Notes under the pieces: generated by a model
What the model saw: only the letters and a program-made list of their open reading frames with translations
Databases searched by the model: none
Told to the model about the DNA's origin: nothing
Sequence record: OK254197.1
Source: Escherichia phage PNJ1902
Length of the DNA: 64,000 nt
Reading direction: 5' to 3' (one strand)
Part shown: piece by piece, positions 19,023 to 61,499 of the stretch
How positions within the stretch are numbered: the stretch's first letter is position 1
How the letters are laid out: each line of letters begins with the position of its first letter
Made by a program: the position numbers and the translations under genes

Positions 19023-19051
19023 TTGCCAATCTCTATTAAAAATTGTATAAT
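19023..19051 (+). promoter_or_regulatory. sigma70 promoter
   Basis: TTGCCA-17-TATAAT. Confidence 0.55.
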
Positions 19052-19163
19052 CACGCACTCGTGCACGCGATATAAAATGATTATCTAGTATCACACATCT
19101 CACGTTAAAAGCAAGCAAATTTTTTATTTAAATGCAATATCATAGGCTTATTTAAAATTGTAG

Positions 19164-19192
19164 TTGCTTTTTACTGTATATATTGGTATAAT
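19164..19192 (+). promoter_or_regulatory. sigma70 promoter for phoH operon
   Basis: TTGCTT-17-TATAAT. Confidence 0.65.
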
Positions 19193-19256
19193 ATATTTGT
19201 AAGTTGATAAACAAGATCTTTTTGTTGATCCTCTGTTAGCGAAGTACACTATAGGA

Positions 19257-20018
19257 GTGTTATTTATGGGAAAAGCACGTCAAAAAAGAGAGAACCGCAA
19301 TGGTTCAAGAAAGCGTGGCAACAAATATGAGAACAACGTAATTCAGGCTGATTTTTCTAATGATTACGCTAATCCAGTTGCTAAATCCCTAGTAGGTAAA
19401 AACCGCGAGCAAAAATCATATATCAATATGATCAAGAACAACACAGTGACTGTGGGTATCGGTGAGCCGGGTACTGGTAAAACCTTTATTCCGTCCGTTC
19501 TTGCAGCTCAGGAACTCGTAGACATTCACTCAGATATTGAGCAAGTGATCCTCGTACGTCCTAATGAACCTCTAGGTAAGTCTCTTGGTATGCTTCCTGG
19601 TGATCTAGCGGAAAAGCTAGAGCCTTGGTTGGAACCAATAGCTGATGGTATGAAATGGGCCATCGGCGATCATGCATATAAGGGATATGTCGAACGTCAG
19701 AAAATTAAATTTTTGGCTATCGAACATGCTCGTGGCAGAACTTTCAACAACTCCTATGTAATTGTCGATGAAGCTCAGAATATTTCCGTTGAGGCAATGA
19801 TTTGTCTCCTAACTCGTGTAGGACAAGACTGCCGTTTAATTATCTGCGGAGATATAGCTCAGAAAGACATTAAAGGTGACTCAGGTCTAGCACTCCTTAT
19901 GGAAGTCTATGAAAAATACGAAAATGCCCCATTCTCAATGATCGAATTGATTGATAACGTTCGTTCTGCTGAGTCTAAAGCATTCTATGACATTTTTAAA
20001 GACATGGGGAAGGTGTAA
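19257..20018 (+). CDS. phoH: PhoH-like ATPase
   Basis: 253 aa; Walker A GEPGTGKT; Walker B VIVDEAQN. Confidence 0.8.
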   Translation: MLFMGKARQKRENRNGSRKRGNKYENNVIQADFSNDYANPVAKSLVGKNREQKSYINMIKNNTVTVGIGEPGTGKTFIPSVLAAQELVDIHSDIEQVILVRPNEPLGKSLGMLPGDLAEKLEPWLEPIADGMKWAIGDHAYKGYVERQKIKFLAIEHARGRTFNNSYVIVDEAQNISVEAMICLLTRVGQDCRLIICGDIAQKDIKGDSGLALLMEVYEKYENAPFSMIELIDNVRSAESKAFYDIFKDMGKV

Positions 20019-20019
20019 T

Positions 20020-20262
20020 ATGGGAAACGTCGTTCATCTGAGCCGTAAAACTAAAATACATCGTACTTCACTGAGTGCTGCTAATATGATTACACGTAAG
20101 GAAGGGGAAGAAAGTCCTAAGACAACCCTAGCGTGGAAAATTGTAACCTCAAATCCAAATAAACCATTCAATTATAACGAGCTGAGCACCTCCATAGATA
20201 TTCTATTAAAAGAGGCAGCTAGAGCTAAAGTAATTGAACAAGCTAAAAAGCTAGACTGGTAA
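20020..20262 (+). CDS. Hypothetical protein
   Basis: ~80 aa; ATG overlapping phoH stop; table ORF 19951 has a longer, probably spurious N-terminus. Confidence 0.45.
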   Translation: MGNVVHLSRKTKIHRTSLSAANMITRKEGEESPKTTLAWKIVTSNPNKPFNYNELSTSIDILLKEAARAKVIEQAKKLDW

Positions 20263-20268
20263 TATACA

Positions 20269-20301
20269 GGGCCTGGGTATGAAAATACCCGGGCCTTTTC
20301 T
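20269..20301 (+). terminator. Intrinsic terminator
   Basis: GGGCCTGGGTAT...ATACCCGGGCC hairpin + TTTTCT. Confidence 0.65.
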
Positions 20302-22714: not shown

Positions 22715-22723
22715 TAAAAACAA

Positions 22724-22750
22724 GGAGATCTTCGGGTCTCCTTTTTCTTT
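22724..22750 (+). terminator. Intrinsic terminator
   Basis: GGAGATCTTCGGGTCTCC hairpin + TTTTTCTTT. Confidence 0.65.
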
Positions 22751-22820
22751 GAAATTTTACTTGCTAATCGCTACCAGATTTGCTATAATATTCCTGAAAT
22801 AGTGAGAAAGAGGAAAATCA

Positions 22821-23966
22821 ATGACTACTTTACTAAACCTGAATTGGGATCATACTAACGCTGACCTTTTCCTGGGAGATTCTCTCGGTATCGCAGATTA
22901 TGTACGTGTAGCACACCCAGAACTAGAACGTCTAGCACTTTTGCAACGCTCTCAATTTTGGACTGAAACTGAAATCAGTCTAGAAGCAGATAAGAAACAA
23001 TGGCCTAATCTCCCACGTGAAATTCAGGAAATTACACTCCTGAACTTAGCATGGCAGACTCAAACTGATTCCTTTATCAGTCGTGCTCCTGAAGCAGCTA
23101 TTATGCCGCTTGTAAGTCGTCCAGAATTGGAAGGTATGCTCAAACAGTGGAGCTATTTTGAAGACCTGCATAGTCGTGCTTATAGCAATATTATTCGTAA
23201 TGTGCTAACTGATCCAGCAGAATTTATTGATTCTGTAACCAAAAACCAAGAAGCATTCGCACGCATCGCTGATTCTGTTGAACTATTCGATGAACTGTAC
23301 CAGTTAGGTCAGTATTTCATCGCAGTACGCGATCATCGTGGTGACAATACATATCCAGAAACTGAGTTCCCTGAAGTTAAACGTGAAACTCAGGCTAAAC
23401 TATTAGACGCTTACTTTGCGATCTACGGTCTGGAAGCAATGCAGTTTTACGCATCCTTTGCATGTACCTTTGCATTAGCAGAAAACGATATTCTGCAAGG
23501 TATTGCTAAAAATCTGCAATTAATCGCTAAAGATGAAGCTCTGCACACTCAGATGTCCAAAGCAATCATCCAGATTATGTTTCAACAATTTGACAAAGAT
23601 CTGGTAGAGGAAGCAGTGGCTAAAGCACCAGCACAGCTCCTGAAAACTCTGAAAACTGAAATTGAATGGGGTCATTTCATTTTCAAAGGTCGTAGTCTGA
23701 TTGGCTTGAATGCAGAACTTCTAGAAGAATATCTGTACTTTGTGGGGCGTAATGCATTTATGCACATCGGTGTAGAATGGCCAAGTAACCTGCCGGTAAT
23801 CACCAAGAACCCTATTCCATGGATCATGAACTGGTTGGATACCACTTCTTTACAGCCTGCTCCACAAGAAATCCAGATTGGTGCAGCATATCGTGTAGGT
23901 CAGGTAACTGAGACCTCTACTGATACTCTGAAAGATCTGGGCAATGAATTTGGAGATTTCTTATGA
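22821..23966 (+). CDS. nrdB: Ribonucleoside-diphosphate reductase small subunit
   Basis: 381 aa; di-iron ligand pattern and position after nrdA. Confidence 0.8.
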   Translation: MTTLLNLNWDHTNADLFLGDSLGIADYVRVAHPELERLALLQRSQFWTETEISLEADKKQWPNLPREIQEITLLNLAWQTQTDSFISRAPEAAIMPLVSRPELEGMLKQWSYFEDLHSRAYSNIIRNVLTDPAEFIDSVTKNQEAFARIADSVELFDELYQLGQYFIAVRDHRGDNTYPETEFPEVKRETQAKLLDAYFAIYGLEAMQFYASFACTFALAENDILQGIAKNLQLIAKDEALHTQMSKAIIQIMFQQFDKDLVEEAVAKAPAQLLKTLKTEIEWGHFIFKGRSLIGLNAELLEEYLYFVGRNAFMHIGVEWPSNLPVITKNPIPWIMNWLDTTSLQPAPQEIQIGAAYRVGQVTETSTDTLKDLGNEFGDFL

Positions 23967-25356: not shown

Positions 25357-25380
25357 TAGCCCTTCGGGGCTATTATATTT
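25357..25380 (+). terminator. Intrinsic terminator
   Basis: TAGCCCTTCGGGGCTA hairpin + T-rich tail. Confidence 0.55.
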
Positions 25381-25443
25381 AAATTTCATTTGCTTATTTA
25401 GTGAAATTTAAATATAATATATTTTATAAATTGGAGGCATATA

Positions 25444-26201: not shown

Positions 26202-26221
26202 TAAATAAATTAAAAATTCAC

Positions 26222-26250
26222 TTGCTTAAAGCCCTCTAATTTAGTATAAT
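26222..26250 (+). promoter_or_regulatory. sigma70 promoter (T5 early type)
   Basis: TTGCTT-17-TATAAT preceded by AAAAATTCA. Confidence 0.65.
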
Positions 26251-26277
26251 ATTCGTATTGAAAGTGAGGAGGGCTTT

Positions 26278-26562: not shown

Positions 26563-27008
26563 AGATTACCGAATTTAAAGGTACTTATAGTTTCTTATCT
26601 AACTTTTATTTATCACCAATTACTTTCGAATACCTAAACGAGATATGGCATGCTGATACTGTAGAACATGCTTTTCAGGCTATGAAATCCGACCAAAAAG
26701 ATGATGTAGCTCATGTACTGCGCTCCCTAAATGCAGGAGTTGCCAAACGTAGAGGACGTAAATTAACTCTACGCTCTGACTGGGATAAGGTAAAAGATGA
26801 TGTAATGCTAGAGCTTTTACGGTTAAAGTTTGCAATCCCTGATTTGAGAGACAAACTGTTAGCAACAAAAAATGCAACTTTGATCGAAGGAAATACCTGG
26901 GGAGATACATATTGGGGTGTTTGCCGAGGCATCGGGGATAATACTCTAGGTGTTCTTTTGATGCAGGTAAGGTCTGAAATTAAAAGAAGCTTACAGTTAA
27001 TAAATTAA
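26559..27008 (+). CDS. NADAR/YbiA-like domain protein
   Basis: 149 aa; LSNFY...HAFQAMK motifs typical of the YbiA/NADAR family. Confidence 0.5.
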   Translation: MKITEFKGTYSFLSNFYLSPITFEYLNEIWHADTVEHAFQAMKSDQKDDVAHVLRSLNAGVAKRRGRKLTLRSDWDKVKDDVMLELLRLKFAIPDLRDKLLATKNATLIEGNTWGDTYWGVCRGIGDNTLGVLLMQVRSEIKRSLQLIN

Positions 27009-27016
27009 AAATTCAT

Positions 27017-27045
27017 TTGCTAAATGCTTCAAATTCTCGTATAAT
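27017..27045 (+). promoter_or_regulatory. sigma70 promoter (T5 early type)
   Basis: TTGCTA-17-TATAAT. Confidence 0.7.
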
Positions 27046-27083
27046 ATACTTCATAAATTGATAAACAAAAAGGAAAACAAATA

Positions 27084-28170: not shown

Positions 28171-28872
28171 ATGAAAGTAAAACCATTTGGTATGCTAGAT
28201 ATTGAATCTCTAGGAACTCCAGGAGATTGTGGTACTACTCATATCGCAATGCCTTCTTTCGCTTTTGTGGCTATGCATGGAATTGATAAAGACCCTGATC
28301 TAGTATTTGTTACTTTGGATGTGCAAGATCAACTTAATTCTGGTGCCAAAGTTACAGCATCTACTCTAGCATTCTGGATGGATCAAGCTAAAAATAGTCC
28401 GTCTGCTATCCACATTATGGAAGCTATGAAGGAACGTAATCCAAAACTGATTGCCTTCCAAAATGGTAAACATCATTGCACTAATAAATTAGGCTCAAAC
28501 TATGCTGCCTTCTCTATGGCTCAAAATATTATGGAGTTGGCTCTAGGCGAAAATGCTTTGTATTATGGCAATGGCCCAGAGTTTGATATGACTATCTACT
28601 CTGCAAATACGTTCCATGCTGGAACCAATGAAGAGGTAGTTCCGTGGAAATTCTGGAATTTGGGCAATGTTCGATCTCTTCGTAATCTCTGGATGCAAGC
28701 TGGATACAGTTATAAAGCTCTAGAGACCGAAGGTATTAGCTGGGCAATAGCTAAAATGGAGAAGATGGACACTATTCGTTATGGGATCTATCCGGTTAAG
28801 CACGACCCAGCATTCGATGCCTTAGTTGAGAGCTATTGTGTTGCAGCTATGATCGAAAAAATGAAAATTTGA
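28171..28872 (+). CDS. Putative DEDDh-type 3'-5' exonuclease
   Basis: 233 aa; Exo I-like LDIES and Exo III-like HDPAFDAL motifs. Confidence 0.45.
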   Translation: MKVKPFGMLDIESLGTPGDCGTTHIAMPSFAFVAMHGIDKDPDLVFVTLDVQDQLNSGAKVTASTLAFWMDQAKNSPSAIHIMEAMKERNPKLIAFQNGKHHCTNKLGSNYAAFSMAQNIMELALGENALYYGNGPEFDMTIYSANTFHAGTNEEVVPWKFWNLGNVRSLRNLWMQAGYSYKALETEGISWAIAKMEKMDTIRYGIYPVKHDPAFDALVESYCVAAMIEKMKI

Positions 28873-28873
28873 T

Positions 28874-28902
28874 TTGCTTCCGGCTCCAAAATTCTGTATA
28901 AT
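28874..28902 (+). promoter_or_regulatory. sigma70 promoter (T5 early type)
   Basis: TTGCTT-17-TATAAT. Confidence 0.65.
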
Positions 28903-28942
28903 ATATTCATAAATTTGAGAAAACAATAAAAGGAAAACAAAT

Positions 28943-29817: not shown

Positions 29818-30200
29818 TAATTTAAAAGCTAGTAAATCGGTAGACGAAAGCCTAAGCATCTTACCTCGCAGCAGCGGTTGAAATACGAGGTTAAATAAGA
29901 CCGCTGACCATACTATAAAGTATAATCTATTGGAGATTATGTTTATTACACCAGCCTTTTAAGCTGACACGTAAGAACAAAGCGTCGTTGATATTACCGA
30001 CACAACTTCAAAGATCAACATTTAAGTATGAAAGCTGAAAAGTTTAAAGAACTCAAACTTCTAAACTTCTAAAGCTAAAAGATGCAAAGTATTCGTTGAT
30101 GATTCAAACCCTAGATCAAAGGTACATGGCTCATAAGATATGGCCTGTGGCGCCTCTAGGCTGTTTATCGGTTTACTAGTTTCACAATTTAAAAATGTAT

Positions 30201-30229
30201 TTGCTAATCTACTAAATTATATGTATAAT
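30201..30229 (+). promoter_or_regulatory. sigma70 promoter (T5 early type)
   Basis: TTGCTA-17-TATAAT. Confidence 0.65.
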
Positions 30230-30259
30230 ATATTTTTAAATTGATGAAACGAGGCTATT

Positions 30260-30582: not shown

Positions 30583-31032
30583 ATGAAGGCAGCTTTGCTT
30601 TTAGTAGCTGCCCTTACCTTCAGCTTTAGTAGTCAGGCATCGCACGATGCAAAAGAAATAGATTGCATTGCTAAAAATATCTATTTCGAGAGTCGTGGTG
30701 AGGGCATAAAGGGAATGACGGCGATTGCACATGTTACTAAAAACCGTGTAAACTCCGGTAAATTCCCAGATTCCTACTGTAAAGTAGTATATCAGTCTAA
30801 CCAGTTCTCTTGGGTATCTAAGAGACCAAAAGTTGATAAAACCGATGAGGCTTGGCAAACAGCCAAGAATTTAGCTAGAGTGATATACTACGTTGATTTA
30901 CCACAAGATCCTACACATGGAGCACTATACTTCCATAGTGGTAAAGATAAACCTTATTGGACAAAGAAGTTTAAGAAAACAACTAAGATTAAGGGACATA
31001 CGTTTTATAAACCTGTTGTCACTAAAACTTAA
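30583..31032 (+). CDS. Secreted SleB-like cell-wall hydrolase
   Basis: ~149 aa from ATG 30583; signal peptide then NIYFESRGEG...AHV..NR motif. Confidence 0.6.
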   Translation: MKAALLLVAALTFSFSSQASHDAKEIDCIAKNIYFESRGEGIKGMTAIAHVTKNRVNSGKFPDSYCKVVYQSNQFSWVSKRPKVDKTDEAWQTAKNLARVIYYVDLPQDPTHGALYFHSGKDKPYWTKKFKKTTKIKGHTFYKPVVTKT

Positions 31033-31040
31033 AAATTTAC

Positions 31041-31069
31041 TTGCTTAAATACTTAAATTTCTGTATAAT
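31041..31069 (+). promoter_or_regulatory. sigma70 promoter (T5 early type)
   Basis: TTGCTT-17-TATAAT. Confidence 0.65.
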
Positions 31070-31100
31070 ACTTCCATAAACTAATGAGAGGAAGCGAAAT

Positions 31101-31271: not shown

Positions 31272-31714
31272 TGGAAGAGAATATTTTAGATGTTTTGCGT
31301 AGAGCTTTGCAGGATTCTAAGTTTAATGGTTCTGATAAAGAAGTCGCTAAAAGCTACCAGACCATAATCGGGGATCTTCAGCGTATTGATAAAGATTTCA
31401 TCACTTCTGAACAATTTGTGTCTTATCTCAAAGCTCAACTAAAAAGCATTAACCAGATGAAAGCTAAACTTCATGGTCAAGATCTTGATAGTTATAGCTT
31501 GCAGTCTGCTCAGTATGAGTACATTCTAAATAAATGGTTGCAGGAGTATCTGCCTCCTCAGTTATCTGATACTGAGATTCGTAAATACTTTGCAGAATTA
31601 GTTAAGCTAAACCCTGGAATTACAAAGGGTATGCTGATGAAAGCGATTAAGGAAGAATTTCCTGGGCGTTATGATGGCGGTACTGCTGCTCAGATTGCTG
31701 GCGAATTTAATTAA
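31271..31714 (+). CDS. GatB/YqeY-domain protein
   Basis: 147 aa; C-terminal ...MLMKAIKEEFPGRYDGGTAAQIAGEF typical of YqeY family. Confidence 0.5.
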   Translation: MEENILDVLRRALQDSKFNGSDKEVAKSYQTIIGDLQRIDKDFITSEQFVSYLKAQLKSINQMKAKLHGQDLDSYSLQSAQYEYILNKWLQEYLPPQLSDTEIRKYFAELVKLNPGITKGMLMKAIKEEFPGRYDGGTAAQIAGEFN

Positions 31715-31722
31715 AAATTTAT

Positions 31723-31751
31723 TTGCTAAATGCCTTTAAATTCTGTATAAT
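31723..31751 (+). promoter_or_regulatory. sigma70 promoter (T5 early type)
   Basis: TTGCTA-17-TATAAT; fires into ~800-bp ORF-free segment. Confidence 0.7.
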
Positions 31752-31973
31752 ATATTCATAAATTAGGGAACAGCGAGCCGATTACGCTGAGTGCAGAATC
31801 CCAACCGGAGCGCATTGAATAGAGTCGGTGGGTTAGTTGTAAAACTAGTACACAGGGGGCGGCAATCCCGGTTAGTGGCTAGAACGTGTAAAATGAGGCG
31901 TCTGAAACCTCTCCCCTAAACTCTTCTCTAATTTATAAATAGTGGGGTGTGGAAATCACTTATGTAGTAACAC

Positions 31974-32047
31974 TGCCGTCCTAGTATAATTGGTATTATC
32001 AAGCCGTAACTGGTGGAAGATGTAGGTTCGAATCCTACGGTCGGTAA
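31974..32047 (+). ncRNA. tRNA-like element (degenerate)
   Basis: GTAGGTTCGAATCCTAC T-arm and 6/7 bp acceptor pairing, tRNA-sized, but no clean D or anticodon arm. Confidence 0.25.
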
Positions 32048-32548
32048 GAACTGGATAACTGGTGCTTTTAATGTAAAAGCTTCCGAGGTTAGTTGCGCAC
32101 TGCCTAAACCACGCGGTAGTTGGTTCCAGACTAGCCAACCAGTCTGCTGAATAGTTTTATTACGATTTAACTATGTCCAGACTAAAGAAGAACTTTAGAA
32201 GGTATTCTAGGATAGTGAAGTTCTTTCTCCATATCGGAGTAGTTTTTCAAGCTATCCACAAAGTGGGAAATGCTGACATGAGAGATGTCACTAATGGTGC
32301 ACAATAGCACAGGTAATTCGCGATAATTCCTGTTGAGTAGCAGCAAAAGGCGGGAAGTCATGACCCCAAGCCTAACCGAGTCCTCAATATACCGCAGGAC
32401 ATAACCACTAAGTCACCCTGACTTAAACTGGAAAATAATAGACGTTACCGTATTTTGTCTTGAAATACTTAATGAGTGAGACTTATGACTCTCCCGGTAT
32501 CGTCTGTATTTTTAAGAGTTTTTACGAGAGTTCTTAAAAATACTTAAA

Positions 32549-32623
32549 CGGGGTGTAGTCTAAGGGAGAGGCAGGAGTCTTCTAAATTCCTTTATGCAGG
32601 TTCGAATCCTGTCACCTCGGCCA
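32549..32623 (+). tRNA. tRNA-Arg (anticodon UCU), tentative
   Basis: Hand fold: acceptor CGGGGTG/CACCTCG, anticodon stem GGAGT/ATTCC loop CTTCTAA, T-arm GCAGG-TTCGAAT-CCTGT, encoded CCA. Confidence 0.45.
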
Positions 32624-35447: not shown

Positions 35448-35561
35448 GGTCTTTAAAAATTGCCCCCGGATTTTTAGTGGGGTCACAAATTTTGGTCCTC
35501 ACCACTTATCTGCTACCCTTAAGTGCCCTATGATTTTCCTCTAAAAAGTTAAAAATTTTGA

Positions 35562-35590
35562 TTGCTTGAATGCTAAATTCTCTGTATAAT
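35562..35590 (+). promoter_or_regulatory. sigma70 promoter (T5 early type)
   Basis: TTGCTT-17-TATAAT + ATAAATTTGAGAGAGG leader. Confidence 0.7.
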
Positions 35591-35620
35591 ATATCTATAA
35601 ATTTGAGAGAGGAATAAGAT

Positions 35621-36139
35621 ATGAATGTTGATGAGCTAACACAGCACCTCTTATCTAGAGGATTTGATACAGATAAATATCATTGCTGGTTAAGCCCGGA
35701 AGGGTGGCTAACAGTCCCATTGTATGACTTCTCTGGGATGTTGCGGGGCTATCAGACGTATAATCCTTCTGCTCCAAAAGGGCATGGTAAGTGCCCCTTT
35801 GAGGCTAAATATTTTACCTACTCCACTACACAGTGTGTATGGGGACTAGAAACTCTCAATGGAGATGAAAAAGTAGTATTGATTGCTGAATCTGTATTTA
35901 AGGCAGTTGCATTACATAATGCTGGTTATCCAGCCCTAGCAATGTTGGGTTCTACCCCAGGAAAAGCGTTATTAAAGCAACTGAAATTACTACCTTTTAA
36001 ATTGGTAGCTGTCGGGGATAATGATCCTGCGGGTGAAAAATTTGCTAGAAAATTGAACGGCTTTGTTTCTCCTGTAGATGTGGATGAGATGTCTACCGAA
36101 AACTTGAAAAATTTTCTTGCTATGAAGCTAAATTTCTAA
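35621..36139 (+). CDS. Toprim-domain protein
   Basis: 172 aa; conserved Glu (LIAES) and DxD (GDNDPAG). Confidence 0.5.
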   Translation: MNVDELTQHLLSRGFDTDKYHCWLSPEGWLTVPLYDFSGMLRGYQTYNPSAPKGHGKCPFEAKYFTYSTTQCVWGLETLNGDEKVVLIAESVFKAVALHNAGYPALAMLGSTPGKALLKQLKLLPFKLVAVGDNDPAGEKFARKLNGFVSPVDVDEMSTENLKNFLAMKLNF

Positions 36140-36160
36140 TATAATATATCTTATAAATTC

Positions 36161-36249
36161 GGAAGAATAGCATAACGGTATTGCAGCAGATTGCTAATCT
36201 GTCGGTTTGAAATATAGCCTTGTGGGTTCGATTCCCACTTCTTCCGCCA
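36161..36249 (+). tRNA. tRNA-Ser (anticodon GCU), class II
   Basis: Hand fold: acceptor GGAAGAA/TTCTTCC, loop TTGCTAA, long variable arm, T-arm GTGGG-TTCGATT-CCCAC, CCA encoded. Confidence 0.55.
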
Positions 36250-36255: not shown

Positions 36256-36333
36256 GGTTCTCAAGCTCATATGGTATGAGCACCCGGCTCATAACCGGAA
36301 GGTACGTAGGTTCGAATCCTCGGGGAGCCACCA
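36256..36333 (+). tRNA. tRNA with CAU anticodon (Met/Ile2), tentative
   Basis: Acceptor GGTTCTC/GGGAGCC (2 GU), loop CTCATAA, TTCGAAT T-loop with weak 3-bp T-stem. Confidence 0.45.
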
Positions 36334-37295: not shown

Positions 37296-37325
37296 CTCCT
37301 CCAAACAGAATTTTTAAAAATGTAC

Positions 37326-37355
37326 TTGCCTTTTGCTTTAAATTTCTGATATAAT
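37326..37355 (+). promoter_or_regulatory. sigma70 promoter
   Basis: TTGCCT-18-TATAAT. Confidence 0.6.
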
Positions 37356-37385
37356 AGTTATATAAATTGATGAAGGAGTTAATGA

Positions 37386-37661: not shown

Positions 37662-37692
37662 CTAATACAGCACTGAGCAAGTTCTTTAAAAT

Positions 37693-37726
37693 TTGACTTG
37701 CTCAGTGCCTTAAAACTTGGTATAAT
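37693..37726 (+). promoter_or_regulatory. sigma70 promoter driving tRNA cluster
   Basis: TTGACT/TTGCTC-17-TATAAT. Confidence 0.65.
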
Positions 37727-37793
37727 AGTTATCTAATTTGGAAACATATTTAAAAGTGTTTAAATTAGAATTTTTTTGAATACTTCTAAATAT

Positions 37794-38147: not shown

Positions 38148-38420
38148 ATGCATCCTGAAAACTTCTTTATTTACTGCGCGGATAAGTCGCTGAAACGTAG
38201 AATTAACAAAGTCTATCATTATCGTGCTAGTCAACAGCCTTATGTATACGCTTTTGACGGTGATCACATTCCATTAGAACAATTATCTTGTGATTACATG
38301 ATATTGAAGAACTTTGACGAGACAAAGATCTCAAGCGTTCACAATCGACAGAATCCATTAACGTGGAAATATAAGAAGAAAAAGAAAGGCATCAAATTCT
38401 TAAAAAATGTAGTTGCTTAG
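38148..38420 (+). CDS. Hypothetical protein
   Basis: ~90 aa from ATG 38148 with RBS AAGGAG (table start 38133 is TTG). Confidence 0.5.
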   Translation: MHPENFFIYCADKSLKRRINKVYHYRASQQPYVYAFDGDHIPLEQLSCDYMILKNFDETKISSVHNRQNPLTWKYKKKKKGIKFLKNVVA

Positions 38421-38441
38421 TTTCCAAAAGTTCTGTATAAT
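38413..38441 (+). promoter_or_regulatory. sigma70 promoter
   Basis: TTGCTT-17-TATAAT. Confidence 0.65.
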
Positions 38442-38489
38442 AATTACATAAATTGAACTGGAGAAGCAACATGATAGAATAAGATAAAT

Positions 38490-39920: not shown

Positions 39921-39940
39921 TAAATTTATTAAAAATTCAT

Positions 39941-39969
39941 TTGCTATTCTGCTTAATTCTCTGTATAAT
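39941..39969 (+). promoter_or_regulatory. sigma70 promoter (T5 early type)
   Basis: TTGCTA-17-TATAAT. Confidence 0.7.
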
Positions 39970-40001
39970 ATATTTTATAAAGTGAAGAGAAGGAAAGCAA
40001 A

Positions 40002-40594: not shown

Positions 40595-40612
40595 ATTTCA
40601 AGAAAAACGCAG

Positions 40613-40641
40613 TTGCTTGATGCTTAATTTCTTGTTATAAT
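40613..40641 (+). promoter_or_regulatory. sigma70 promoter
   Basis: TTGCTT-17-TATAAT; followed by ~230 nt ORF-free transcribed spacer. Confidence 0.65.
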
Positions 40642-40879
40642 ATTTATATAAATTGATGAGGAGAGATCCTCATCATAGTTCACTAAGGTATTAGCTCGAC
40701 CTAGGACTGGCTGCCAAAAAGCACGATCCCTTCTACTTGGGAGAAGTTCTAGATTAGTCCACTAGATTCAGCGGCAACTGAATAGTGTATCGGGTTTGCG
40801 AGATGACGCAGTTCCTTCCGCTCGAAGCGAAGGTGCTGTAGTTACGCCGAGCTAATAGCCTTAGTAAACTAAAGATTTT

Positions 40880-43302: not shown

Positions 43303-43470
43303 ATGTTTAAACTCCTAGTAGTTATCTGGTATAGCCAATCAAACAGAGCTAATACCTCTCACGTTATAGACTTTAATACTAAAAATGAAGCTGAAGAAGC
43401 ATATGCTAATTTAATACAACGTAATAAAGAATCTCGTAGTATAGTTTATGAAGTGACTAAACTTTATTAA
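43303..43470 (+). CDS. Hypothetical protein
   Basis: 55 aa from ATG 43303 with RBS AAGGA. Confidence 0.4.
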   Translation: MFKLLVVIWYSQSNRANTSHVIDFNTKNEAEEAYANLIQRNKESRSIVYEVTKLY

Positions 43471-43478
43471 AAATTCAT

Positions 43479-43507
43479 TTGCCTTCTCTCTTATTTCTTG
43501 TTATAAT
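43479..43507 (+). promoter_or_regulatory. sigma70 promoter (T5 early type)
   Basis: TTGCCT-17-TATAAT + ATAAATTAATGAGAGG leader. Confidence 0.65.
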
Positions 43508-43537
43508 ATTTATATAAATTAATGAGAGGGAAACCAA

Positions 43538-45786: not shown

Positions 45787-45803
45787 ATTCTGAAATAATT
45801 CAT

Positions 45804-45832
45804 TTGCTAAACCTCTCTTTTCTTGCTATAAT
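45804..45832 (+). promoter_or_regulatory. sigma70 promoter (T5 early type)
   Basis: TTGCTA-17-TATAAT. Confidence 0.7.
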
Positions 45833-45862
45833 ATGTTTATAAATTGATGAGAGAGGTTTGAA

Positions 45863-47915: not shown

Positions 47916-47928
47916 AATAAAATTTTAG

Positions 47929-47957
47929 TTGCTTAGATGCCCAAACTTTTGTATAAT
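47929..47957 (+). promoter_or_regulatory. sigma70 promoter (T5 early type)
   Basis: TTGCTT-17-TATAAT. Confidence 0.7.
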
Positions 47958-47988
47958 ATGTTTATAGATTGAGGCAAGAGGATTAAAT

Positions 47989-52458: not shown

Positions 52459-52471
52459 GATAAAAAAGTAG

Positions 52472-52500
52472 TTGACTTTTAGCCCTAGTTATTATATAAT
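52472..52500 (+). promoter_or_regulatory. sigma70 promoter
   Basis: TTGACT-17-TATAAT. Confidence 0.7.
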
Positions 52501-52533
52501 ATATACATAAATTAGTTAAGAGAGGTATATATT

Positions 52534-53255: not shown

Positions 53256-53286
53256 AGCCTGATCTTAGCTGATCAGGCTTTTATTT
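53256..53286 (+). terminator. Intrinsic terminator
   Basis: AGCCTGATC...GATCAGGCT hairpin + TTTATTTT. Confidence 0.65.
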
Positions 53287-53289
53287 TAC

Positions 53290-53318
53290 TTGCTTTTTGC
53301 TAAAAATTTTGGTATAAT
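53290..53318 (+). promoter_or_regulatory. sigma70 promoter
   Basis: TTGCTT-17-TATAAT. Confidence 0.6.
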
Positions 53319-53345
53319 AATTATATAAATTGATTGGAGGATTAA

Positions 53346-53591
53346 ATGTTAGCGGAACAAGCAAAACGTTTAGCCAGGATAAATAGAGCTACACTCCTTA
53401 AGAGCAGAAAGAAACCATATAAATACGTTAAAAAGAGAATAGTTTCTTCTGTGGAGATTGGGGGTTCTTTTGTACAGTTTAATCGTGATGAAATTAGTTA
53501 TGAAGCTATAAAAGCCCTATATAAAGAGGGTTATAATCTCCAACTATCTAATGATTATGGCACAACTATTTTAACTGTTATTTGGGAATAA
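53346..53591 (+). CDS. Hypothetical protein
   Basis: 81 aa ORF with RBS GGAGGA. Confidence 0.5.
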   Translation: MLAEQAKRLARINRATLLKSRKKPYKYVKKRIVSSVEIGGSFVQFNRDEISYEAIKALYKEGYNLQLSNDYGTTILTVIWE

Positions 53592-54978: not shown

Positions 54979-55086
54979 GTATATAGCTGAGGCTATTATT
55001 AAACGAATCATACAAGCGATAGCAATACTTATAATCATTTGTATTGCTATTGGTACAGGATTAGGCATTTTAATTAAAAGTTTTAT

Positions 55087-55115
55087 TTGCTAAAATGCTT
55101 AAGTTTCTGTATAAT
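55087..55115 (+). promoter_or_regulatory. sigma70 promoter (T5 early type)
   Basis: TTGCTA-17-TATAAT. Confidence 0.7.
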
Positions 55116-55145
55116 TACTTTATAAATTGATGAGAAGGAATCAAA

Positions 55146-55577
55146 ATGAACAAAGTTGATAAAGCTCTAGTTTTCGCAGCAGCAGATAAGTTTGAACAAG
55201 TTAAGGCAACTTTCCGAACCTTGTTCCAGTCTTACGTTCAGGATAAGTCTAATCCTATCTCTGAACGTTTGATGGTCTGGGAATGTCATGCTTGCAATGC
55301 CCTATTAATTGCGGATTATCGTAGCGATATAGATAAAGATCTGTGCGAAATTCTTATCGCTGAGGAGGCAGAACGTTATCAGTTAATCTCTTTCCAAGAT
55401 TTGGCGGAGCATATCATTCCTGATGATCTTTGGGATAAATACTATGGGGATCCTGAAGATGAAGGAATGACTCCAGAAGCCTGTATTGAGCTAATCTGCA
55501 AAAATCATCCTGAAATTGCAGAGAAATTTGAAAAAGTTTTTGCTTCTGAGTTCTCCGGCGTTGTTAACGATTGGTAA
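55146..55577 (+). CDS. Hypothetical protein
   Basis: 143 aa ORF with RBS GAAGGAA. Confidence 0.55.
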   Translation: MNKVDKALVFAAADKFEQVKATFRTLFQSYVQDKSNPISERLMVWECHACNALLIADYRSDIDKDLCEILIAEEAERYQLISFQDLAEHIIPDDLWDKYYGDPEDEGMTPEACIELICKNHPEIAEKFEKVFASEFSGVVNDW

Positions 55578-55594
55578 GTAATTAAAAAATTCAG

Positions 55595-55623
55595 TTGCTT
55601 TAAGCCTTAAAATTCTGTATAAT
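55595..55623 (+). promoter_or_regulatory. sigma70 promoter (T5 early type)
   Basis: TTGCTT-17-TATAAT. Confidence 0.7.
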
Positions 55624-55655
55624 AAGTTCATAAATTAATGAGAGAGGAAATTCTA

Positions 55656-55907
55656 ATGGAAAACATGACTAAAAACGAAATGGCTAACGTTCTGGCAATT
55701 CTCCTCGACATGCAGGGTTTTGAGGGTCAGCTCATGAAGATGTCTATTCCGGCAATGAAAAAGATGTATGATTCTCTAAATAAGAATGCTATGGCATTCA
55801 ACCTCGCAAAACAGGAAGCACGTTTTGCGAAAGAACATCAGGCTACTGCTGAACGCCGTGCAGCATCTTTTGAGCGTGAAGTTAAGCAACTGAAAGGTAA
55901 GAAATAA
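55656..55907 (+). CDS. Hypothetical protein
   Basis: 83 aa from ATG 55656. Confidence 0.5.
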   Translation: MENMTKNEMANVLAILLDMQGFEGQLMKMSIPAMKKMYDSLNKNAMAFNLAKQEARFAKEHQATAERRAASFEREVKQLKGKK

Positions 55908-57009: not shown

Positions 57010-57210
57010 ATGATAAAACGTCTTGTTTATCAGGCACCAAAGATTGTAACTGAGTATTTTGTATTACTGCCTCAGATTGTATTTCTAACAGCATTATTTA
57101 ATATACTTTTTCGACATCTAGGAATAACAGAAAATATCTTCTACACTTCTGGACTACTTCCTTTTATGTACGAAGGCATCATCGTGGCAATTAACGGAGT
57201 TCGTAAATGA
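57010..57210 (+). CDS. Small membrane protein
   Basis: 66 aa ORF. Confidence 0.4.
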   Translation: MIKRLVYQAPKIVTEYFVLLPQIVFLTALFNILFRHLGITENIFYTSGLLPFMYEGIIVAINGVRK

Positions 57211-57668
57211 CAGCACTACAACAACTACAGAATTACTGGTTTGATAACCAATTTAACGATCTCTTCATCCAGTTGTTTGTCGAAACGAACGGACGCTTCA
57301 ACTACCGATTCTTTAATAAGTTTCACGAAACAAAATTCTCGCATACAGAAATTAATACAGCGATCCAAGACCTAACTGGTTCTAAAGTAGTTCAATATCG
57401 TGAAGTAGACTTTACACCAGATTGTTTTGGGTTTGAATTGTTTAAGAAAGCATATAAATTTGGTAAGTTTGAGGATGCTCGTCAATGGGTTCATGATTTC
57501 TGGTACAACACTGATATTGTTCCTAGTCGTGTACTGATTCTTAACTGGATTGCTAAACAACATCCGCCTAAAGCTCAATCGTCCTTCTTACCAACTGACA
57601 CAGGAAACCTCTACCATGACAGAAAAGAAAAATCCATTGCTGGAGCAGATGAAGGAATGGGAGAGTAA
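57207..57668 (+). CDS. Hypothetical protein
   Basis: 153 aa ORF. Confidence 0.55.
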   Translation: MTALQQLQNYWFDNQFNDLFIQLFVETNGRFNYRFFNKFHETKFSHTEINTAIQDLTGSKVVQYREVDFTPDCFGFELFKKAYKFGKFEDARQWVHDFWYNTDIVPSRVLILNWIAKQHPPKAQSSFLPTDTGNLYHDRKEKSIAGADEGMGE

Positions 57669-58246: not shown

Positions 58247-58693
58247 ATGAGAGAAAAAGTAAATGAATTACTAATCGAGGAAGCTAACAACTTTCCAATA
58301 AACAGGTTTATCAAATCGGATGGATCTATTAATAGAACTAAGATTAAGCAGCTACATCCTGACTTTCAACAAGAAGCACTAAACCTTATATTTATCAAGA
58401 AAGCTATTGCAGTTCATGGAGCTTTCTTTGGATATGAGCGTGTAAATTACAAAACAATGCAACAGCAAGTCGAGATCTATTGTCCAGATCATGATGGTTA
58501 TTACTGGCAAACTGCTAGATCTCATTTAGAAGGGCATGGTTGTCGACTGTGTGCACACAAGGTTGTGCAGCGTGTCACAGATTATGGAACCTATACCGTA
58601 CCAGCATGTTATCATAAATTTGTAGTTGACGATAATCATATAGTTTGGTATAATAAGTTTTCAAAGTTAAGAATGGAGATAAATAGTGAGTAG
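58247..58693 (+). CDS. Hypothetical protein, paralog of N-terminal half of 60714-61442
   Basis: ~148 aa; shared stretch KQLHPDFQQEALNLIFI...GYERVNYKT...QTARSHLEGHGC. Confidence 0.55.
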   Translation: MREKVNELLIEEANNFPINRFIKSDGSINRTKIKQLHPDFQQEALNLIFIKKAIAVHGAFFGYERVNYKTMQQQVEIYCPDHDGYYWQTARSHLEGHGCRLCAHKVVQRVTDYGTYTVPACYHKFVVDDNHIVWYNKFSKLRMEINSE

Positions 58694-58976
58694 CTATATT
58701 ATATGGTCAAATCCATTAGCAGCACTTAGTAACAAACTATTTAAAACAACATGGGGCTATAATGAAATAGACTTAAGCAGTCGCCCCATACCAAATACAT
58801 GCTCTCTAGTCCCAGATCTGTATAAAGTAGTAATAAATAACGTAGAATATTTGGTTGACGAATTTGACAGAAGGTATATACTAGAGTGCATTTATGATAA
58901 CAATACATCAATGAATGAACTAATAGATCATGCCCAAATGTGTGATAAAAGCTGGATGTTAATATGGAAATCATAG
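58686..58976 (+). CDS. Hypothetical protein
   Basis: 96 aa ORF. Confidence 0.45.
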   Translation: MSSYIIWSNPLAALSNKLFKTTWGYNEIDLSSRPIPNTCSLVPDLYKVVINNVEYLVDEFDRRYILECIYDNNTSMNELIDHAQMCDKSWMLIWKS

Positions 58977-59197
58977 CAATTATTTTAGTAGTTATGTTAT
59001 TCATCGTAGTACTTGTATCTTTTGCTATTATGCGTAGAGCTAGAGAACTAGCAGAAGATCTAATAAAATTACGTGGTGAGGTAGCGGGTCTAAAACTACA
59101 ACGTGAAGCTCTCAAGCTATTCGTAGCTCAAGGTAGTGTAGAGCATACAGCAGAAGACTTCATCATATATCTCAAACGTTACATGGGAGTTAAATAA
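58964..59197 (+). CDS. Small membrane protein
   Basis: 77 aa; N-terminal TM helix. Confidence 0.45.
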   Translation: MEIIAIILVVMLFIVVLVSFAIMRRARELAEDLIKLRGEVAGLKLQREALKLFVAQGSVEHTAEDFIIYLKRYMGVK

Positions 59198-59382
59198 TGG
59201 AAACTCTTTTTCTTTTAATGCTCGTAGGTTCTCTGTTACTAATACTAGCACTTCTACTAATCTGCAACATTCTTAACAACAAGAATCTAGAATTAAAGTG
59301 TGAGAACCAAATCCTTAATCGTGAACTTAAACAATATAACATCGCAGCCCATAAACTATTAGACAAACTGGAGAATAAATAA
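59197..59382 (+). CDS. Small membrane protein
   Basis: 61 aa; hydrophobic N-terminus. Confidence 0.4.
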   Translation: METLFLLMLVGSLLLILALLLICNILNNKNLELKCENQILNRELKQYNIAAHKLLDKLENK

Positions 59383-59996
59383 TGTTTACACAACAACCTA
59401 TTCAAGTAGTACCAGACCATGAACTGAACACATGGGATTATAGCTTTAAAGATTTAATTGCTACTGTACAATTCAAATCTATGAAGCTAACATTTGCACA
59501 CAATGACCTTAGAGCCTGTAAAGATCTTGAAAGTAAGCTCGAAGATGCTCGTAAGATTTTTGGCAAGGCTCGCATCCCAGCTGATAATCTAATTAACGCA
59601 TTAATCGATGCAGGGTACAAACTTGTGAAGACTGAGGTGAACCGCCCTAGTACTCCAGTGACTATTAGAGATCCGTGGCAGTCAGGGACAATCTCAATGC
59701 TGAATAACTCCGATAAAAGATTAATGTCGGATTTGCACAATGTTCCTTGTGGGGGTGTGGTAAGTAGTACGCAGTCATATAAGTTTGCGGAAGATTACGG
59801 CCCTTCTGTACAGTTGAAACATACTCAAGAAGCTTTTGAATCTGATATGCAAAGCGTAGCACCTGCGGATGCTGGAGTTTCTAGGAGTTCTGTTTGTACT
59901 ATTCATTTTAATAATCCTAGTAAACATGGAAGTTTAGAGGATGCTATTATGGAGGCGTTGGGAGCTGCTCTTAATGAAGATAAGAGAGGTAATTAA
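59382..59996 (+). CDS. Hypothetical protein
   Basis: 204 aa ORF. Confidence 0.55.
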   Translation: MFTQQPIQVVPDHELNTWDYSFKDLIATVQFKSMKLTFAHNDLRACKDLESKLEDARKIFGKARIPADNLINALIDAGYKLVKTEVNRPSTPVTIRDPWQSGTISMLNNSDKRLMSDLHNVPCGGVVSSTQSYKFAEDYGPSVQLKHTQEAFESDMQSVAPADAGVSRSSVCTIHFNNPSKHGSLEDAIMEALGAALNEDKRGN

Positions 59997-60721
59997 TGAG
60001 TATAAAAAAGAATTTAGCAGAGATTATTAAGTTAGCTAGAGCTTGTAATGGGAAATATGTTTCTCAGCTTAATGAACTAGAGGCACATGCAGTAGCATTT
60101 TGTGCAGAGTTTTATCCTGCATACCTTAATGCTAGTGGACAGCCCAAATATAATAAAGATGCAGGAGAAGTTACGTTAGCTCCTTCATATATTAGCTTGC
60201 GTCGTCTAATCCAAACTGTTGATCCTACTATTAAAGGATTCTCAGCAGATTCATTCCACGTCTTTGCAGATAAAGAACTCCCGTATTTTAAAGAAGGAAA
60301 TGCAAAGTCATGTTTAGAATGTTATCCAAATATTCTGATGATTCCTCAAAAGCAATGTAAATACGATCATCTTCCTAGACTTACAAAGAAAGTAGAACCA
60401 CCTTATTCTTCTCTATCTGAATTAAAGCTAGGAATTGTATCTACACTTGCGCAGGTTCATCTAAGTATAGTTGACGACTCAACAACATCTAATCCTATTC
60501 TAGATGCTGCACACTTTGAAATTTTACGTGATCCTGAACAAGCTAGAAAAGTTGCAAAGTCTGTTAAGTTTGATATATCAACAATTCTTGACACTAAACA
60601 AGAAACTAGACCTAGAGGAAGTGTAGATTATTCTGCACTAAATTCCGAGTCATCTTATTTAGCAACATTCCTTTTCATGGCGTCAAAAGGGGTTATTCTA
60701 AAGGTTAATAAAGATGGATGA
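59996..60721 (+). CDS. Hypothetical protein
   Basis: 241 aa ORF. Confidence 0.55.
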   Translation: MSIKKNLAEIIKLARACNGKYVSQLNELEAHAVAFCAEFYPAYLNASGQPKYNKDAGEVTLAPSYISLRRLIQTVDPTIKGFSADSFHVFADKELPYFKEGNAKSCLECYPNILMIPQKQCKYDHLPRLTKKVEPPYSSLSELKLGIVSTLAQVHLSIVDDSTTSNPILDAAHFEILRDPEQARKVAKSVKFDISTILDTKQETRPRGSVDYSALNSESSYLATFLFMASKGVILKVNKDG

Positions 60722-61442
60722 TTTACGTGCTGAAATTAATAAAAAGCTACGCGAGGAAGCCAGGAGGTTTCCTCTTAAAAACTTTTTGAAGTCAAATGGC
60801 TCTACTAATATAACGAAGATTAGGCAACTTCACCCTGACTTCCAACAAGAGGCCTTAAACCTTATCTTTATTAGGAAAGCTTTAAAAGTCCAGAAAGAAG
60901 AGTATGGGTATGAAAGAGTTAATTATAAGACAGCCAATCAGTTAGTAGAGATATGGTGCTATAAACACAAAGGATACTTTATGCAAACTGCTAGATCTCA
61001 CCTAGATGGGCACGGTTGTTTACAATGTGCTAGAGAAAGCAACCTCAATACACCTATCGAGAAACCGGAAGTAGAAGAAGATGTTCAGTTCCCCACATAT
61101 CTCTATATCTTCTCTAATAAAGATCAGTCTAGGAAGAAATTAAAGACAAAGATTGGGGTTTCTAGAGAGCCACATCAAAGGTTTAAGAATCTAGAGTATG
61201 ATAAATTACGTGTGCCGGGTTTTGAAGATATGGAAGTATTTGGTATCTACCAATATAAGAAAGGATCGAAAGAACTCGCTTACAAAATAGAACACCAAGC
61301 ACATAAATTTTTCGAGAATAAATTTGCTAATCATTATAAATTCGATGGAGCAAAAGAGATATTCAACATTAAAGCTGTAGAGGCAGAAGAATATCTATTA
61401 AGTCAAGGTTGCATAAAAATTTACCCAACTCCAAACTCATGA
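60714..61442 (+). CDS. Two-domain protein: N-terminal domain paralogous to 58247-58693 plus C-terminal T5orf172 (GIY-YIG-like) domain
   Basis: 242 aa; C-terminal YLYIFSN...KIGVSREP...RFKNL motif. Confidence 0.55.
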   Translation: MDDLRAEINKKLREEARRFPLKNFLKSNGSTNITKIRQLHPDFQQEALNLIFIRKALKVQKEEYGYERVNYKTANQLVEIWCYKHKGYFMQTARSHLDGHGCLQCARESNLNTPIEKPEVEEDVQFPTYLYIFSNKDQSRKKLKTKIGVSREPHQRFKNLEYDKLRVPGFEDMEVFGIYQYKKGSKELAYKIEHQAHKFFENKFANHYKFDGAKEIFNIKAVEAEEYLLSQGCIKIYPTPNS

Positions 61443-61469
61443 CAAAAATTTAAAAGTAACGAAATTTGC

Positions 61470-61499
61470 TTGACATTCGTGAGAATAATGTGTTATAAT
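61470..61499 (+). promoter_or_regulatory. Consensus sigma70 promoter firing into the repeat locus
   Basis: TTGACA-18-TATAAT, no ORF downstream. Confidence 0.55.

Follow-up and report, generated by a model that had tools for sequence, protein, structure and literature searches.

A Family of T5-Type Promoters with a Conserved, Promoter-Anchored Initial Transcribed Sequence in Escherichia Phage PNJ1902

Introduction

The early promoters of phage T5 rank with the strongest that Escherichia coli RNA polymerase is known to use, and one of them, N25, is the source of the "T5 promoter" that is widely used in expression vectors. Here we describe a family of 35 promoter units of this type in a 64,000-nucleotide stretch of DNA from Escherichia phage PNJ1902 (sequence record OK254197.1; the whole stretch is called "the window" below, and positions are counted from its first letter), with attention mainly to the leader that follows the -10 box. 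These promoters are strong and well known in T5, and their presence in a relative of T5 was therefore to be expected. What is added here is that the leader separates cleanly into a promoter-anchored core at +1 to +7 of the initial transcribed sequence (ITS) and a purine run that bears the Shine-Dalgarno sequence, that the core is under purifying selection, and that it is common to T5-like phages of Klebsiella, Proteus and Vibrio. The leader is under real selection, and it is transcription that explains its conservation best.

The promoter family and its consensus are already known, both from the annotation of T5 and from the description of the T5-like phage AKFV33 (2012; PMC3326045), for which 32 promoters were reported with TTGCTw and TATAATA boxes 17-18 bp apart, an AT-rich stretch around -43 (AAAAATT) and TAAATT in the +1 region. 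According to passages of PMC7472727 that cite Gentz and Bujard (1985), the T5 orthologs are bound and used by the E. coli sigma70 polymerase with early kinetics. The transcribed part of N25 has been studied in its own right. Passages of PMC12464699 report that an "anti" sequence in place of +3 to +20 cuts productive synthesis about 10-fold via promoter escape, and that the native N25 ITS gives fast escape with few abortive products, being "optimally suited" to the escape problem; passages of PMC5961368 report that ITS changes shift promoter strength in vivo more than 10-fold and that purine content tracks productive yield. For the +3 to +20 effect both sources, in these passages, cite Kammerer 1986.

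The promoters of the window share with the T5 early promoters (Gentz and Bujard, 1985; NC_005859) the boxes, the 17-18 bp spacer, the A-rich -43 region, TAAATT at +1, the location and orientation in the early region and, for 32 of the 35 units, one-to-one orthology; nothing of substance sets them apart, only three units without a T5 match and a few sequences with 1-8% divergence. For the leader the closest parallel is the N25 ITS, or "downstream sequence region" (Kammerer et al., 1986; Hsu laboratory, PMC12464699): the P-N25 ortholog of the window is identical to it from +1 to +20, and other members of the family have its +1 to +7 core and its purine richness. The two bodies of evidence differ in kind, since function was measured on N25 only, as a +3 to +20 block, whereas the conservation of the +1 to +7 core described here, both family-wide and cross-genus, comes from sequence alone.

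The Promoter Family and Its Anatomy

Patterns specific to the family occur far above chance. TTGCT-N16-18-TATAAT has 25 matches in the window against 0.43 expected (at most 4 in 100 shuffles), and TATAAT-N5-8-ATAAATT has 19 against 0.04 expected, all 19 on the transcribed strand. Permitting one mismatch and TTGAC-type -35 boxes, and taking coding-strand sites only, we defined 35 promoter units, 26 on the plus strand (19012-61523) and 9 on the minus strand (2833-18982; Table 1). Their -35 boxes are of the TTGCTN (25), TTGACN (5) and TTGCCN (4) types, and the spacer is 17 bp in 32 units and 18 bp in 3. The enrichment is limited to the family-specific pattern; a generic sigma70 consensus scan, tried as a detector, was uninformative (51 sites vs 52.9 in shuffles).

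Similarity among the units is concentrated in blocks. The -10 boxes have a pairwise identity of 0.99, the -35 boxes one of 0.79, the +1 to +7 stretches 0.72 and the spacers 0.40; the A-tract region (-50 to -36) has 0.56 against 0.36 expected, and from +19 on and upstream of -55 identity is at background level. The full leader, ATAAATT...GAGAG, is found in only 7 of the 35 units. The initial annotation of this DNA had described about 30 near-identical sigma70 promoters at 19023-61499, with a conserved A-rich upstream element and one copy matching T5 PN25. Such a family does exist, its members are promoters of the sigma70 type, and with 26 plus-strand units in that range "about 30" was a fair count; the range left out the nine minus-strand units, among them the copy that does match PN25 (10245-10308), and "near-identical" was too strong, given the spacer identity and the seven full leaders. 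The A-rich element is well supported, with A at -45 to -42 in 28-32 of the 35 units, T at -40 in 32 and A at -37 in 30, and the upstream consensus can be written (T)TAAAA(A/T)T(T/G)(T/C)A-N-TTGCT(T/A).

Each unit is a single extended promoter of about 65 bp that comprises an A-tract like a proximal UP element (-45 to -41), a TTGCT(T/A) -35 box, a 17-bp A/T-rich spacer, a perfect TATAAT -10 box, a 6-nt A/T-rich discriminator, a predicted start at the A of Y-A-T, the ITS ATAAATT at +1 to +7 and a purine run at +8 to +18. The A-tract lies directly upstream of the -35 box, as does the proximal subsite of the UP element, for which a consensus of AAAAAARNR at -46 to -38 is quoted in a passage of PMC4132738; it differs in reading T-T/G-T/C rather than R-N-R at -40 to -38, and there is no conserved distal subsite. 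The discriminator, A-T-w-T-T-Y, is 6 nt long in 30 units and 7 nt in 5, and Y-R(+1)-Y is present in 27. Since PMC7472727 gives TATAATAGATTCAT as -12 to +2 of N25, +1 is the A of ATAAATT, and the conserved leader consists of discriminator and ITS together.

Two further features were considered for the family and set aside. An extended -10 is not a family trait, TGn being present in only 14 of the 35 units; in another 12, TG directly abuts TATAAT, as in N25 (CTGTATAAT). An inverted repeat between the upstream element and the ITS is visible in N25, where AAATTTAT at -43 to -36 is the reverse complement of ATAAATTT at +1 to +8, and at the level of the consensus the complementarity is 4.9 of 7 vs 4.0 for a letter-shuffled ITS. 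There is no covariation within promoters, and re-paired promoters give the same value (p = 0.45); we treat the complementarity as a coincidence of A/T-rich motifs, at most a symmetry at consensus level.

The Initial Transcribed Sequence

Of the 35 units, 19 have ATAAATT exactly and 24 have it with at most one mismatch. Local dinucleotide shuffling of these 30-nt stretches yields 0.14 exact copies (never more than 2 in 2000 shuffles), the motif follows none of the window's 70 other TATAAT sites, and it is missing from all 68 leaders of genes without a family promoter. In view of these three comparisons, the Shine-Dalgarno sequence and AT richness do not account for the similarity of the leaders at +1 to +7; at +8 to +18 they largely do. 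The motif begins 6-7 nt downstream of the -10 box, be the start codon 25, 38, 40, 57, 61 or 73 nt beyond that box, and it is kept where no start codon is involved: of 15 promoters of tRNAs or non-coding RNA, 8 have it within one mismatch. The +1 to +7 core is a real, position-specific element whose anchor is the -10 box and not the start codon.

This anchoring, the independence from coding context and the composition of the leader (AT-rich, then purine) argue that the leader is best read as the downstream part of the promoter. What looks like a single leader is two overlapping things, the +1 to +7 core of the promoter and the purine run. The A-tract, the good -35 box, the perfect -10 box and the A/T-rich discriminator would bind polymerase very tightly, leaving escape as the rate-limiting step; the core, which lies inside the polymerase footprint, could tune the late steps of initiation (scrunching, promoter escape), and through this tuning a tightly bound promoter might still fire fast. 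The purine run would favor escape and double as the Shine-Dalgarno sequence (GAGAGG) when the gene starts at about +25, and a Shine-Dalgarno sequence built into the purine run in this way would be under double constraint. We consider it very probable that the units are early-class promoters of a T5-like phage, used by the unmodified host sigma70 RNA polymerase, and that the leader is mainly a part of the promoter. For the 34 members other than N25 the escape mechanism is inferred from N25. The result supports keeping the native transcribed region when such promoters are engineered.

Several points weigh against reading the leader in this way. Ease of escape explains richness in AT and purines, and does not explain why the order T+2, A+3, A+4, A+5, T+7 is kept; escape was measured after a block swap of +3 to +20, which does not separate out the share of +1 to +7; and the start sites of all units are predicted from N25 alone, no genome-wide data set of T5 start sites having been found in the literature searched. 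The restriction of the signature to early promoters in T5, described below, would also fit a regulatory tag. Finally, a GAGAG flavor of the Shine-Dalgarno sequence is specific to promoter-proximal genes, which fits a dual constraint and is also compatible with a role in translation.

Among the units that precede tRNA genes or non-coding stretches, the P15b ortholog has a predicted leader of only 8 nt (AUAAAUUC) before tRNA-Ser (36140-36161, plus strand), and its promoter overlaps the 3' end of the preceding coding sequence. The P16-17 ortholog is followed by about 790 nt of apparently non-coding DNA (31758-32549, plus strand) before tRNA-Arg, the counterpart of the stable RNA "RNAX" of T5. Within this stretch, at 31975-32046, Rfam gives a weak tRNA-like match (35.5 bits) that ARAGORN did not call.

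Conservation and Temporal Class

By sequence similarity the window is assigned to a T5-like phage (Demerecviridae, Tequintavirus); over a 10-kb piece, identity is 98.5% with Salmonella phage HMD-7 and 97-98% with many other T5-like phages. It is collinear with T5 (NC_005859), but inverted: the minus-strand genes at 1-19000 correspond to the T5 replication genes from D2 to pol, the plus-strand genes at 19000-61500 to the T5 early region (nrd/phoH and the tRNA cluster, to about 11 kb), and at the right end the window extends into homology with the T5 terminal-repeat edge. Annotated promoters of the T5 RefSeq record match 32 of the 35 units at 91-100% identity, among them P-N25, P-N26, P-K28a/b, P-H207, P-D/E33, P16-17, P15a-c, P14a/b, P13a/b, P11 and P-F30; the P-N25 copy is the same as that of T5 from -38 to +20. 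No match among the annotated T5 promoters was found for the units at 19046, 25413 and 61494.

Between orthologs, the +1 to +7 core is 0.957 identical to T5 and 0.940 identical to the Epseptimavirus S124. The corresponding values (T5/S124) are 0.83/0.705 for third codon positions, 0.95/0.91 for first codon positions, 0.94/0.78 for the spacer, 0.93/0.80 for the discriminator and 1.00/1.00 for the -10 box. The core is accordingly under purifying selection about as strong as that on non-synonymous codon positions. Three distant phages, a Klebsiella phage, the Proteus phage Stubb and the Vibrio phage River4, whose D2 proteins are 66%, 47% and 38% identical, respectively, have the whole architecture in their replication and early regions, with (C/T)ATAAA(T/G)T following a 6-nt discriminator; in each of them it is significantly associated with sites found by the upstream matrix as against other TATAAT sites (p = 1e-3 to 2e-5). 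Given its survival over such distances, recent duplication is not the source of the similarity. To judge from these genomes, the core is common to T5-like phages across genera and subfamilies of the Demerecviridae with different gammaproteobacterial hosts; a limited literature search found no published family-wide comparison of Demerecviridae early promoters.

In T5 the signature is confined to one temporal class. A weight matrix built from -50 to -7 of the window units only, scanned over the whole T5 genome, finds 31 sites on the coding strand, all at 13-75.5 kb except one at llp near 110.4 kb, and none in the late region, the pre-early region or the terminal repeats. The annotated late (PG25, PJ5, oad) and pre-early promoters of T5 are likewise without the TTGCT and ATAAATT signature.

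This early-only distribution is what would be seen if the discriminator and ITS together (-6 to +7) marked early promoters for a phage factor that shuts them off or modulates them, for which gpT5.026, a polymerase-binding protein, and D5, a DNA-binding protein, are the candidates; such a tag would have a part in the early-to-late switch. The early promoters have a common ATATT discriminator (PMC7472727), and the same source reports that gpT5.026 damps early transcription: it lowers polymerase binding to an N25 -12/+2 non-template oligonucleotide about 8-fold and weakens the contacts of polymerase with N25 -5/+2, and early transcripts rise without it. By synteny the window encodes orthologs of T5.026 (~57207-57668) and D5 (~5120-5887), and a D5-like protein is annotated in all three of the distant phages that keep the motif. 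On the other side, no sequence-specific binder of ATAAATT is known, and the effect of the native ITS has already been demonstrated to be intrinsic to the polymerase. A temporal tag is a possibility, though not a likely one; it is compatible with an extended promoter, and -6 to +7 is the place to look for a mechanism separating early from late transcription in T5.

The Purine Run and Translation

The second part of the leader, +8 to +18, is 84% purine, with a pairwise identity of 0.40 vs 0.37 expected from composition; its similarity among units is mostly compositional. Purines make up 0.73 of the bases at +1 to +20; in internal ribosome-binding regions the fraction is 0.61 (p = 2.6e-6). In 20 of the 35 units the leader is the entire 5' untranslated region (18-27 nt, most commonly 24-25 nt, with the start codon at +19 to +28), and in these gene-proximal units the Shine-Dalgarno sequence sits within the purine run. 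The proposal that the leader directly supplies the ribosome-binding site is therefore right for these 20 units.

That the leader is the whole untranslated region in so many units lends some weight to the idea, put forward in the initial annotation, that it was selected beyond promoter strength, for instance as a module for mRNA stability or translation. In a post-transcriptional module of this kind AUAAAUU and GAGAGG would together act on the RNA, either by enhancing translation through A/U richness or by stabilizing the 5' end. A GAGAG-type Shine-Dalgarno sequence is found in 10 of 25 promoter-proximal genes vs 1 of 68 others (p = 4e-6), and the first 5-6 nt are unpaired in every predicted leader fold. 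Against it stand the fixed distance of ATAAATT to the -10 box and not to the start codon, and the presence of the motif at tRNA and non-coding promoters, including P15b, whose 8-nt leader would be removed in tRNA 5' processing. A translational enhancer would be just as useful in the 68 internal gene leaders, and these have no copy at all; the predicted structure of the leaders is the same as that of internal genes (p = 0.5), and the N25 data point to escape. We consider such a module unlikely as the source of the conservation; a secondary contribution at the 20 gene-proximal units is plausible, though not as the main driver. If the conserved core acts in transcription initiation, as we propose, an interpretation in terms of mRNA stability or translation points to the wrong level.

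A structured RNA leader was rejected: Rfam matched only tRNAs in the whole window, with no structured leader among them, and folding energy did not differ between promoter-proximal leaders and internal genes. Of four example leaders that were folded, three, which lie ahead of a gene or a long non-coding stretch, had no significant structure. The exception is the P13b ortholog (40648-40700, plus strand), with a hairpin at +7 to +28 (9 predicted pairs, -14.8 kcal/mol, z = -2.3). This hairpin encloses a Shine-Dalgarno-like GAUGAGGAG and no coding sequence follows; the T5 counterpart, "RNA2H", is a stable RNA.

A Second -10-Like Hexamer

The bases TAAATT at +2 to +7 also resemble a second -10 hexamer (TAnnnT), which sigma region 2 might bind again to give a sigma70-dependent pause or sigma retention, as at lambda PR'. 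TAnnnT is present at +2 to +7 in 28 of the 35 units vs 4 of the 70 other TATAAT sites, and T+2, A+3 and T+7 are kept in most variant ITSs and in the distant phages. The family shares with lambda PR' and with the E. coli promoters that carry a second -10-like element (PMC7876045) a consensus -10 box, the 6-nt discriminator and Y-R(+1)-Y, all features that the same source ties to sigma-dependent pauses, together with an early TAnnnT. It departs from them in the position of the hexamer, which lies 1-2 nt further downstream: the second base of the extra hexamer, which in PMC7876045 falls at -1 to +2, about 11 bp past the true -10, is here at +3, in a hexamer that starts 14 bp after the start of the -10. 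Nor does resemblance to a -10 box account for the conservation of A+4 and A+5, which equals that of A+3. According to passages of PMC12464699, native N25 escapes fast and as one population whether GreB is present or not, and those searched mention no sigma-dependent pause at the native N25 ITS. A pause of this kind is, in our judgment, quite improbable.

We know of no Q-like factor in T5. Capping of the +1 A with nicotinamide adenine dinucleotide (NAD) was also considered; the -1 pyrimidine and the +2 U do not fit the published sequence preference for it.

The core, in which T+2, A+3 and T+7 are nearly invariant from the Escherichia and Salmonella phages to those of Vibrio, could also be a specific contact element that programs events after initiation at early promoters only, whether through a sigma70 pause or sigma retention or as the target of shut-off by gpT5.026 or D5. 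We think this improbable on balance; if it were true, the contact element would be a sequence-level handle on the unsolved early-to-late switch of T5.

Descent and Recombination

T4-type early promoters and PeSL cassettes (promoter plus stem-loop) are another case in which many similar strong early promoters punctuate small variable genes. The present family is like them in its many strong, similar early promoters, some directly after terminator hairpins, among small variable genes; it differs in its consensus and in that homology junctions fall in the units no more often than intergenic location predicts. Junctions were determined against T5, HMD-7 and S124, and edges within units +/-20 nt were counted against a null of intergenic-permissive space: 10 of 32, 4 of 16 and 10 of 24 edges fell in units in the three comparisons, vs 0.257 expected (p = 0.3, 0.62 and 0.065). 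A PeSL-like role in recombination was rejected on this basis, the enrichment seen under a uniform null (19-33% vs 6%) being absent within intergenic and gene-boundary space.

That the units are repeats by descent, copies of a duplicated or mobile promoter-leader cassette whose similarity reflects ancestry or a recombination substrate, is very unlikely: the spacers are weakly similar (0.40 vs 0.29 expected) and several breakpoints against T5 and S124 fall inside units (e.g., at 53344), but the similarity comes in blocks at functional positions with background outside -50 to +18, the consensus persists even where the D2 protein has only 38% identity, and the breakpoints are not enriched.

Some differences in gene content between the window and its relatives lie at or next to units. 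At 53344, homology to S124 stops at the start codon, and the same promoter and leader drive a different gene. In T5 the homing endonuclease gene hegH is inserted between the -10 box and nrdB (the equivalent place in the window is 22791/22796), and S124 has an endonuclease gene just upstream of the unit at 55584 (window position 55577).

Promoter Units and Neighboring Features

Table 1. Promoter units of the window, with promoter boxes, initial transcribed sequence (ITS) or leader, and following feature. ORF, open reading frame.
Unit	Position	Strand	Boxes and spacer	ITS or leader	Following feature and remarks
Ortholog of T5 70987 (pol promoter)	2833-2897	-	-35 2886-2881; 18-bp spacer; -10 2862-2857	ITS variant GTAAGTT	DNA polymerase start at 2795
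P-K28a ortholog	6846-6909	-	-35 6898-6893; -10 6875-6870	ITS ATAAATT; predicted start ~6863	ligB ATG at 6839
P-K28b ortholog	6939-7002	-	TTGACA-17-TATACT	no ATAAATT	tandem, upstream of P-K28a
Ortholog of T5 65284	8021-8084	-		ITS ATAAATTGATGAGAG	ligA ATG at 8013
P-N26 ortholog	9237-9300	-		ITS variant ATAGTTT; long leader	D3 gene ATG at 9203
P-N25 ortholog	10245-10308	-	-35 10297-10292; -10 10274-10269	leader ATAAATTTGAGAGAGGAG; predicted start ~10262	D2 helicase ATG at 10237
Ortholog of T5 58999	13786-13850	-	TTGCCG-17-TATAAT	ITS variant	no coding sequence within 120 nt
Ortholog of T5 55708	16944-17007	-		ITS ATAAATTTGAGAGGAG	ORF ATG at 16939
nrdD promoter (T5 53884)	18919-18982	-	TTGACA-17-TATAAT	no ATAAATT	ATG at 18913
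Atypical unit	19012-19075	+	A-tract; TTGCCA-17-TATAAT; GC-rich discriminator CACGCAC	no ITS motif	
Ortholog of T5 53638	19153-19216	+		ITS variant GTAAGTT	phoH ATG at 19266
Ortholog of T5 50061	22750-22813	+		no ATAAATT	nrdB ATG at 22821; terminator hairpin 22722-22743 just upstream
Promoter unit	25379-25443	+	7-nt discriminator	ITS ATAAATTGGAGG	ORF ATG at 25444
Ortholog of T5 46337	26211-26274	+		ITS variant ATTGAAA	ORF ATG at 26278
P-H207 ortholog	27006-27070	+		ITS ATAAATT, promoter-relative position kept	coding sequence 38 nt after -10 box
Ortholog of T5 44393	28863-28926	+		ITS ATAAATT	coding sequence 40 nt after -10 box
Ortholog of T5 43067	30190-30253	+		ITS TTAAATT	ORF ATG at 30260
P-D/E33 ortholog	31030-31093	+		ITS ATAAACT	ORF ATG at 31101
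P16-17 ortholog	31712-31775	+		ITS ATAAATT	non-coding stretch (T5 "RNAX" equivalent), then tRNA-Arg at 32549
P15a ortholog	35551-35614	+		leader ATAAATTTGAGAGAGG	ORF ATG at 35621
P15b ortholog	36106-36170	+		ITS ATAAATT; predicted start ~36153; no Shine-Dalgarno sequence	tRNA-Ser from 36161 (+9)
P15c ortholog	37315-37379	+	TTGCCT-18-TATAAT	ITS ATAAATTGATGAAGGAG	ORF ATG at 37386
P14a ortholog	37687-37750	+		ITS variant CTAATTT	tRNA-Tyr at 37795
P14b ortholog	38402-38465	+		ITS ATAAATT	tRNA-Cys at 38490
P13a ortholog	39930-39994	+		ITS ATAAAGT	ATG ~24 nt past predicted start (assigned from the sequence itself and not by mapping of the HMD-7 annotation)
P13b ortholog	40602-40665	+		ITS ATAAATT, then stable hairpin	non-coding (T5 "RNA2H" equivalent)
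P11 ortholog	43468-43531	+	TTGCCT-17-TATAAT	leader ATAAATTAATGAGAGGG	ORF ATG at 43538
Ortholog of T5 26722	45793-45856	+		full leader ATAAATTGATGAGAGAGG	ORF ATG at 45863
Ortholog of T5 24443	47918-47981	+		ITS ATAGATT	ORF ATG at 47989
Ortholog of T5 19368	52461-52524	+	TTGACT-17-TATAAT	ITS ATAAATT	ORF ATG at 52534
Ortholog of T5 18550	53279-53342	+		ITS ATAAATTGATTGGAGG	ORF ATG at 53346
P-F30 ortholog	55076-55139	+		leader ATAAATTGATGAGAAGG	ORF ATG at 55146
Ortholog of T5 16245	55584-55647	+		leader ATAAATTAATGAGAGAGG	ORF ATG at 55656
Ortholog of T5 13212	58615-58678	+	TTGACG-17-TATAAT	no ATAAATT	ORF GTG at 58686
Last plus-strand unit	61459-61523	+	TTGACA-18-TATAAT	ITS ATAGATT	no mapped coding sequence; adjoins homolog of T5 terminal-repeat edge

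The window contains 21 tRNA genes by ARAGORN and 23 by Rfam; the tRNA at 36256-36330 is an Rfam call that ARAGORN missed. Many gene products in the corresponding part of the HMD-7 record have names that seem out of place in an early region, with small early ORFs labeled "tail tube protein," "major capsid protein," "tail length tape measure protein" or "antitermination protein Q"; such names should not serve to infer function.

The atypical unit belongs to a divergent region (18914-19266), where it precedes the phoH promoter in tandem and points away from the nrdD promoter. Its T5 counterpart (53776) has a GC-rich discriminator too (CCTGCGCC). The cumulative GC skew of the window reaches its minimum in the 18-20 kb bin, the same region as this unit.

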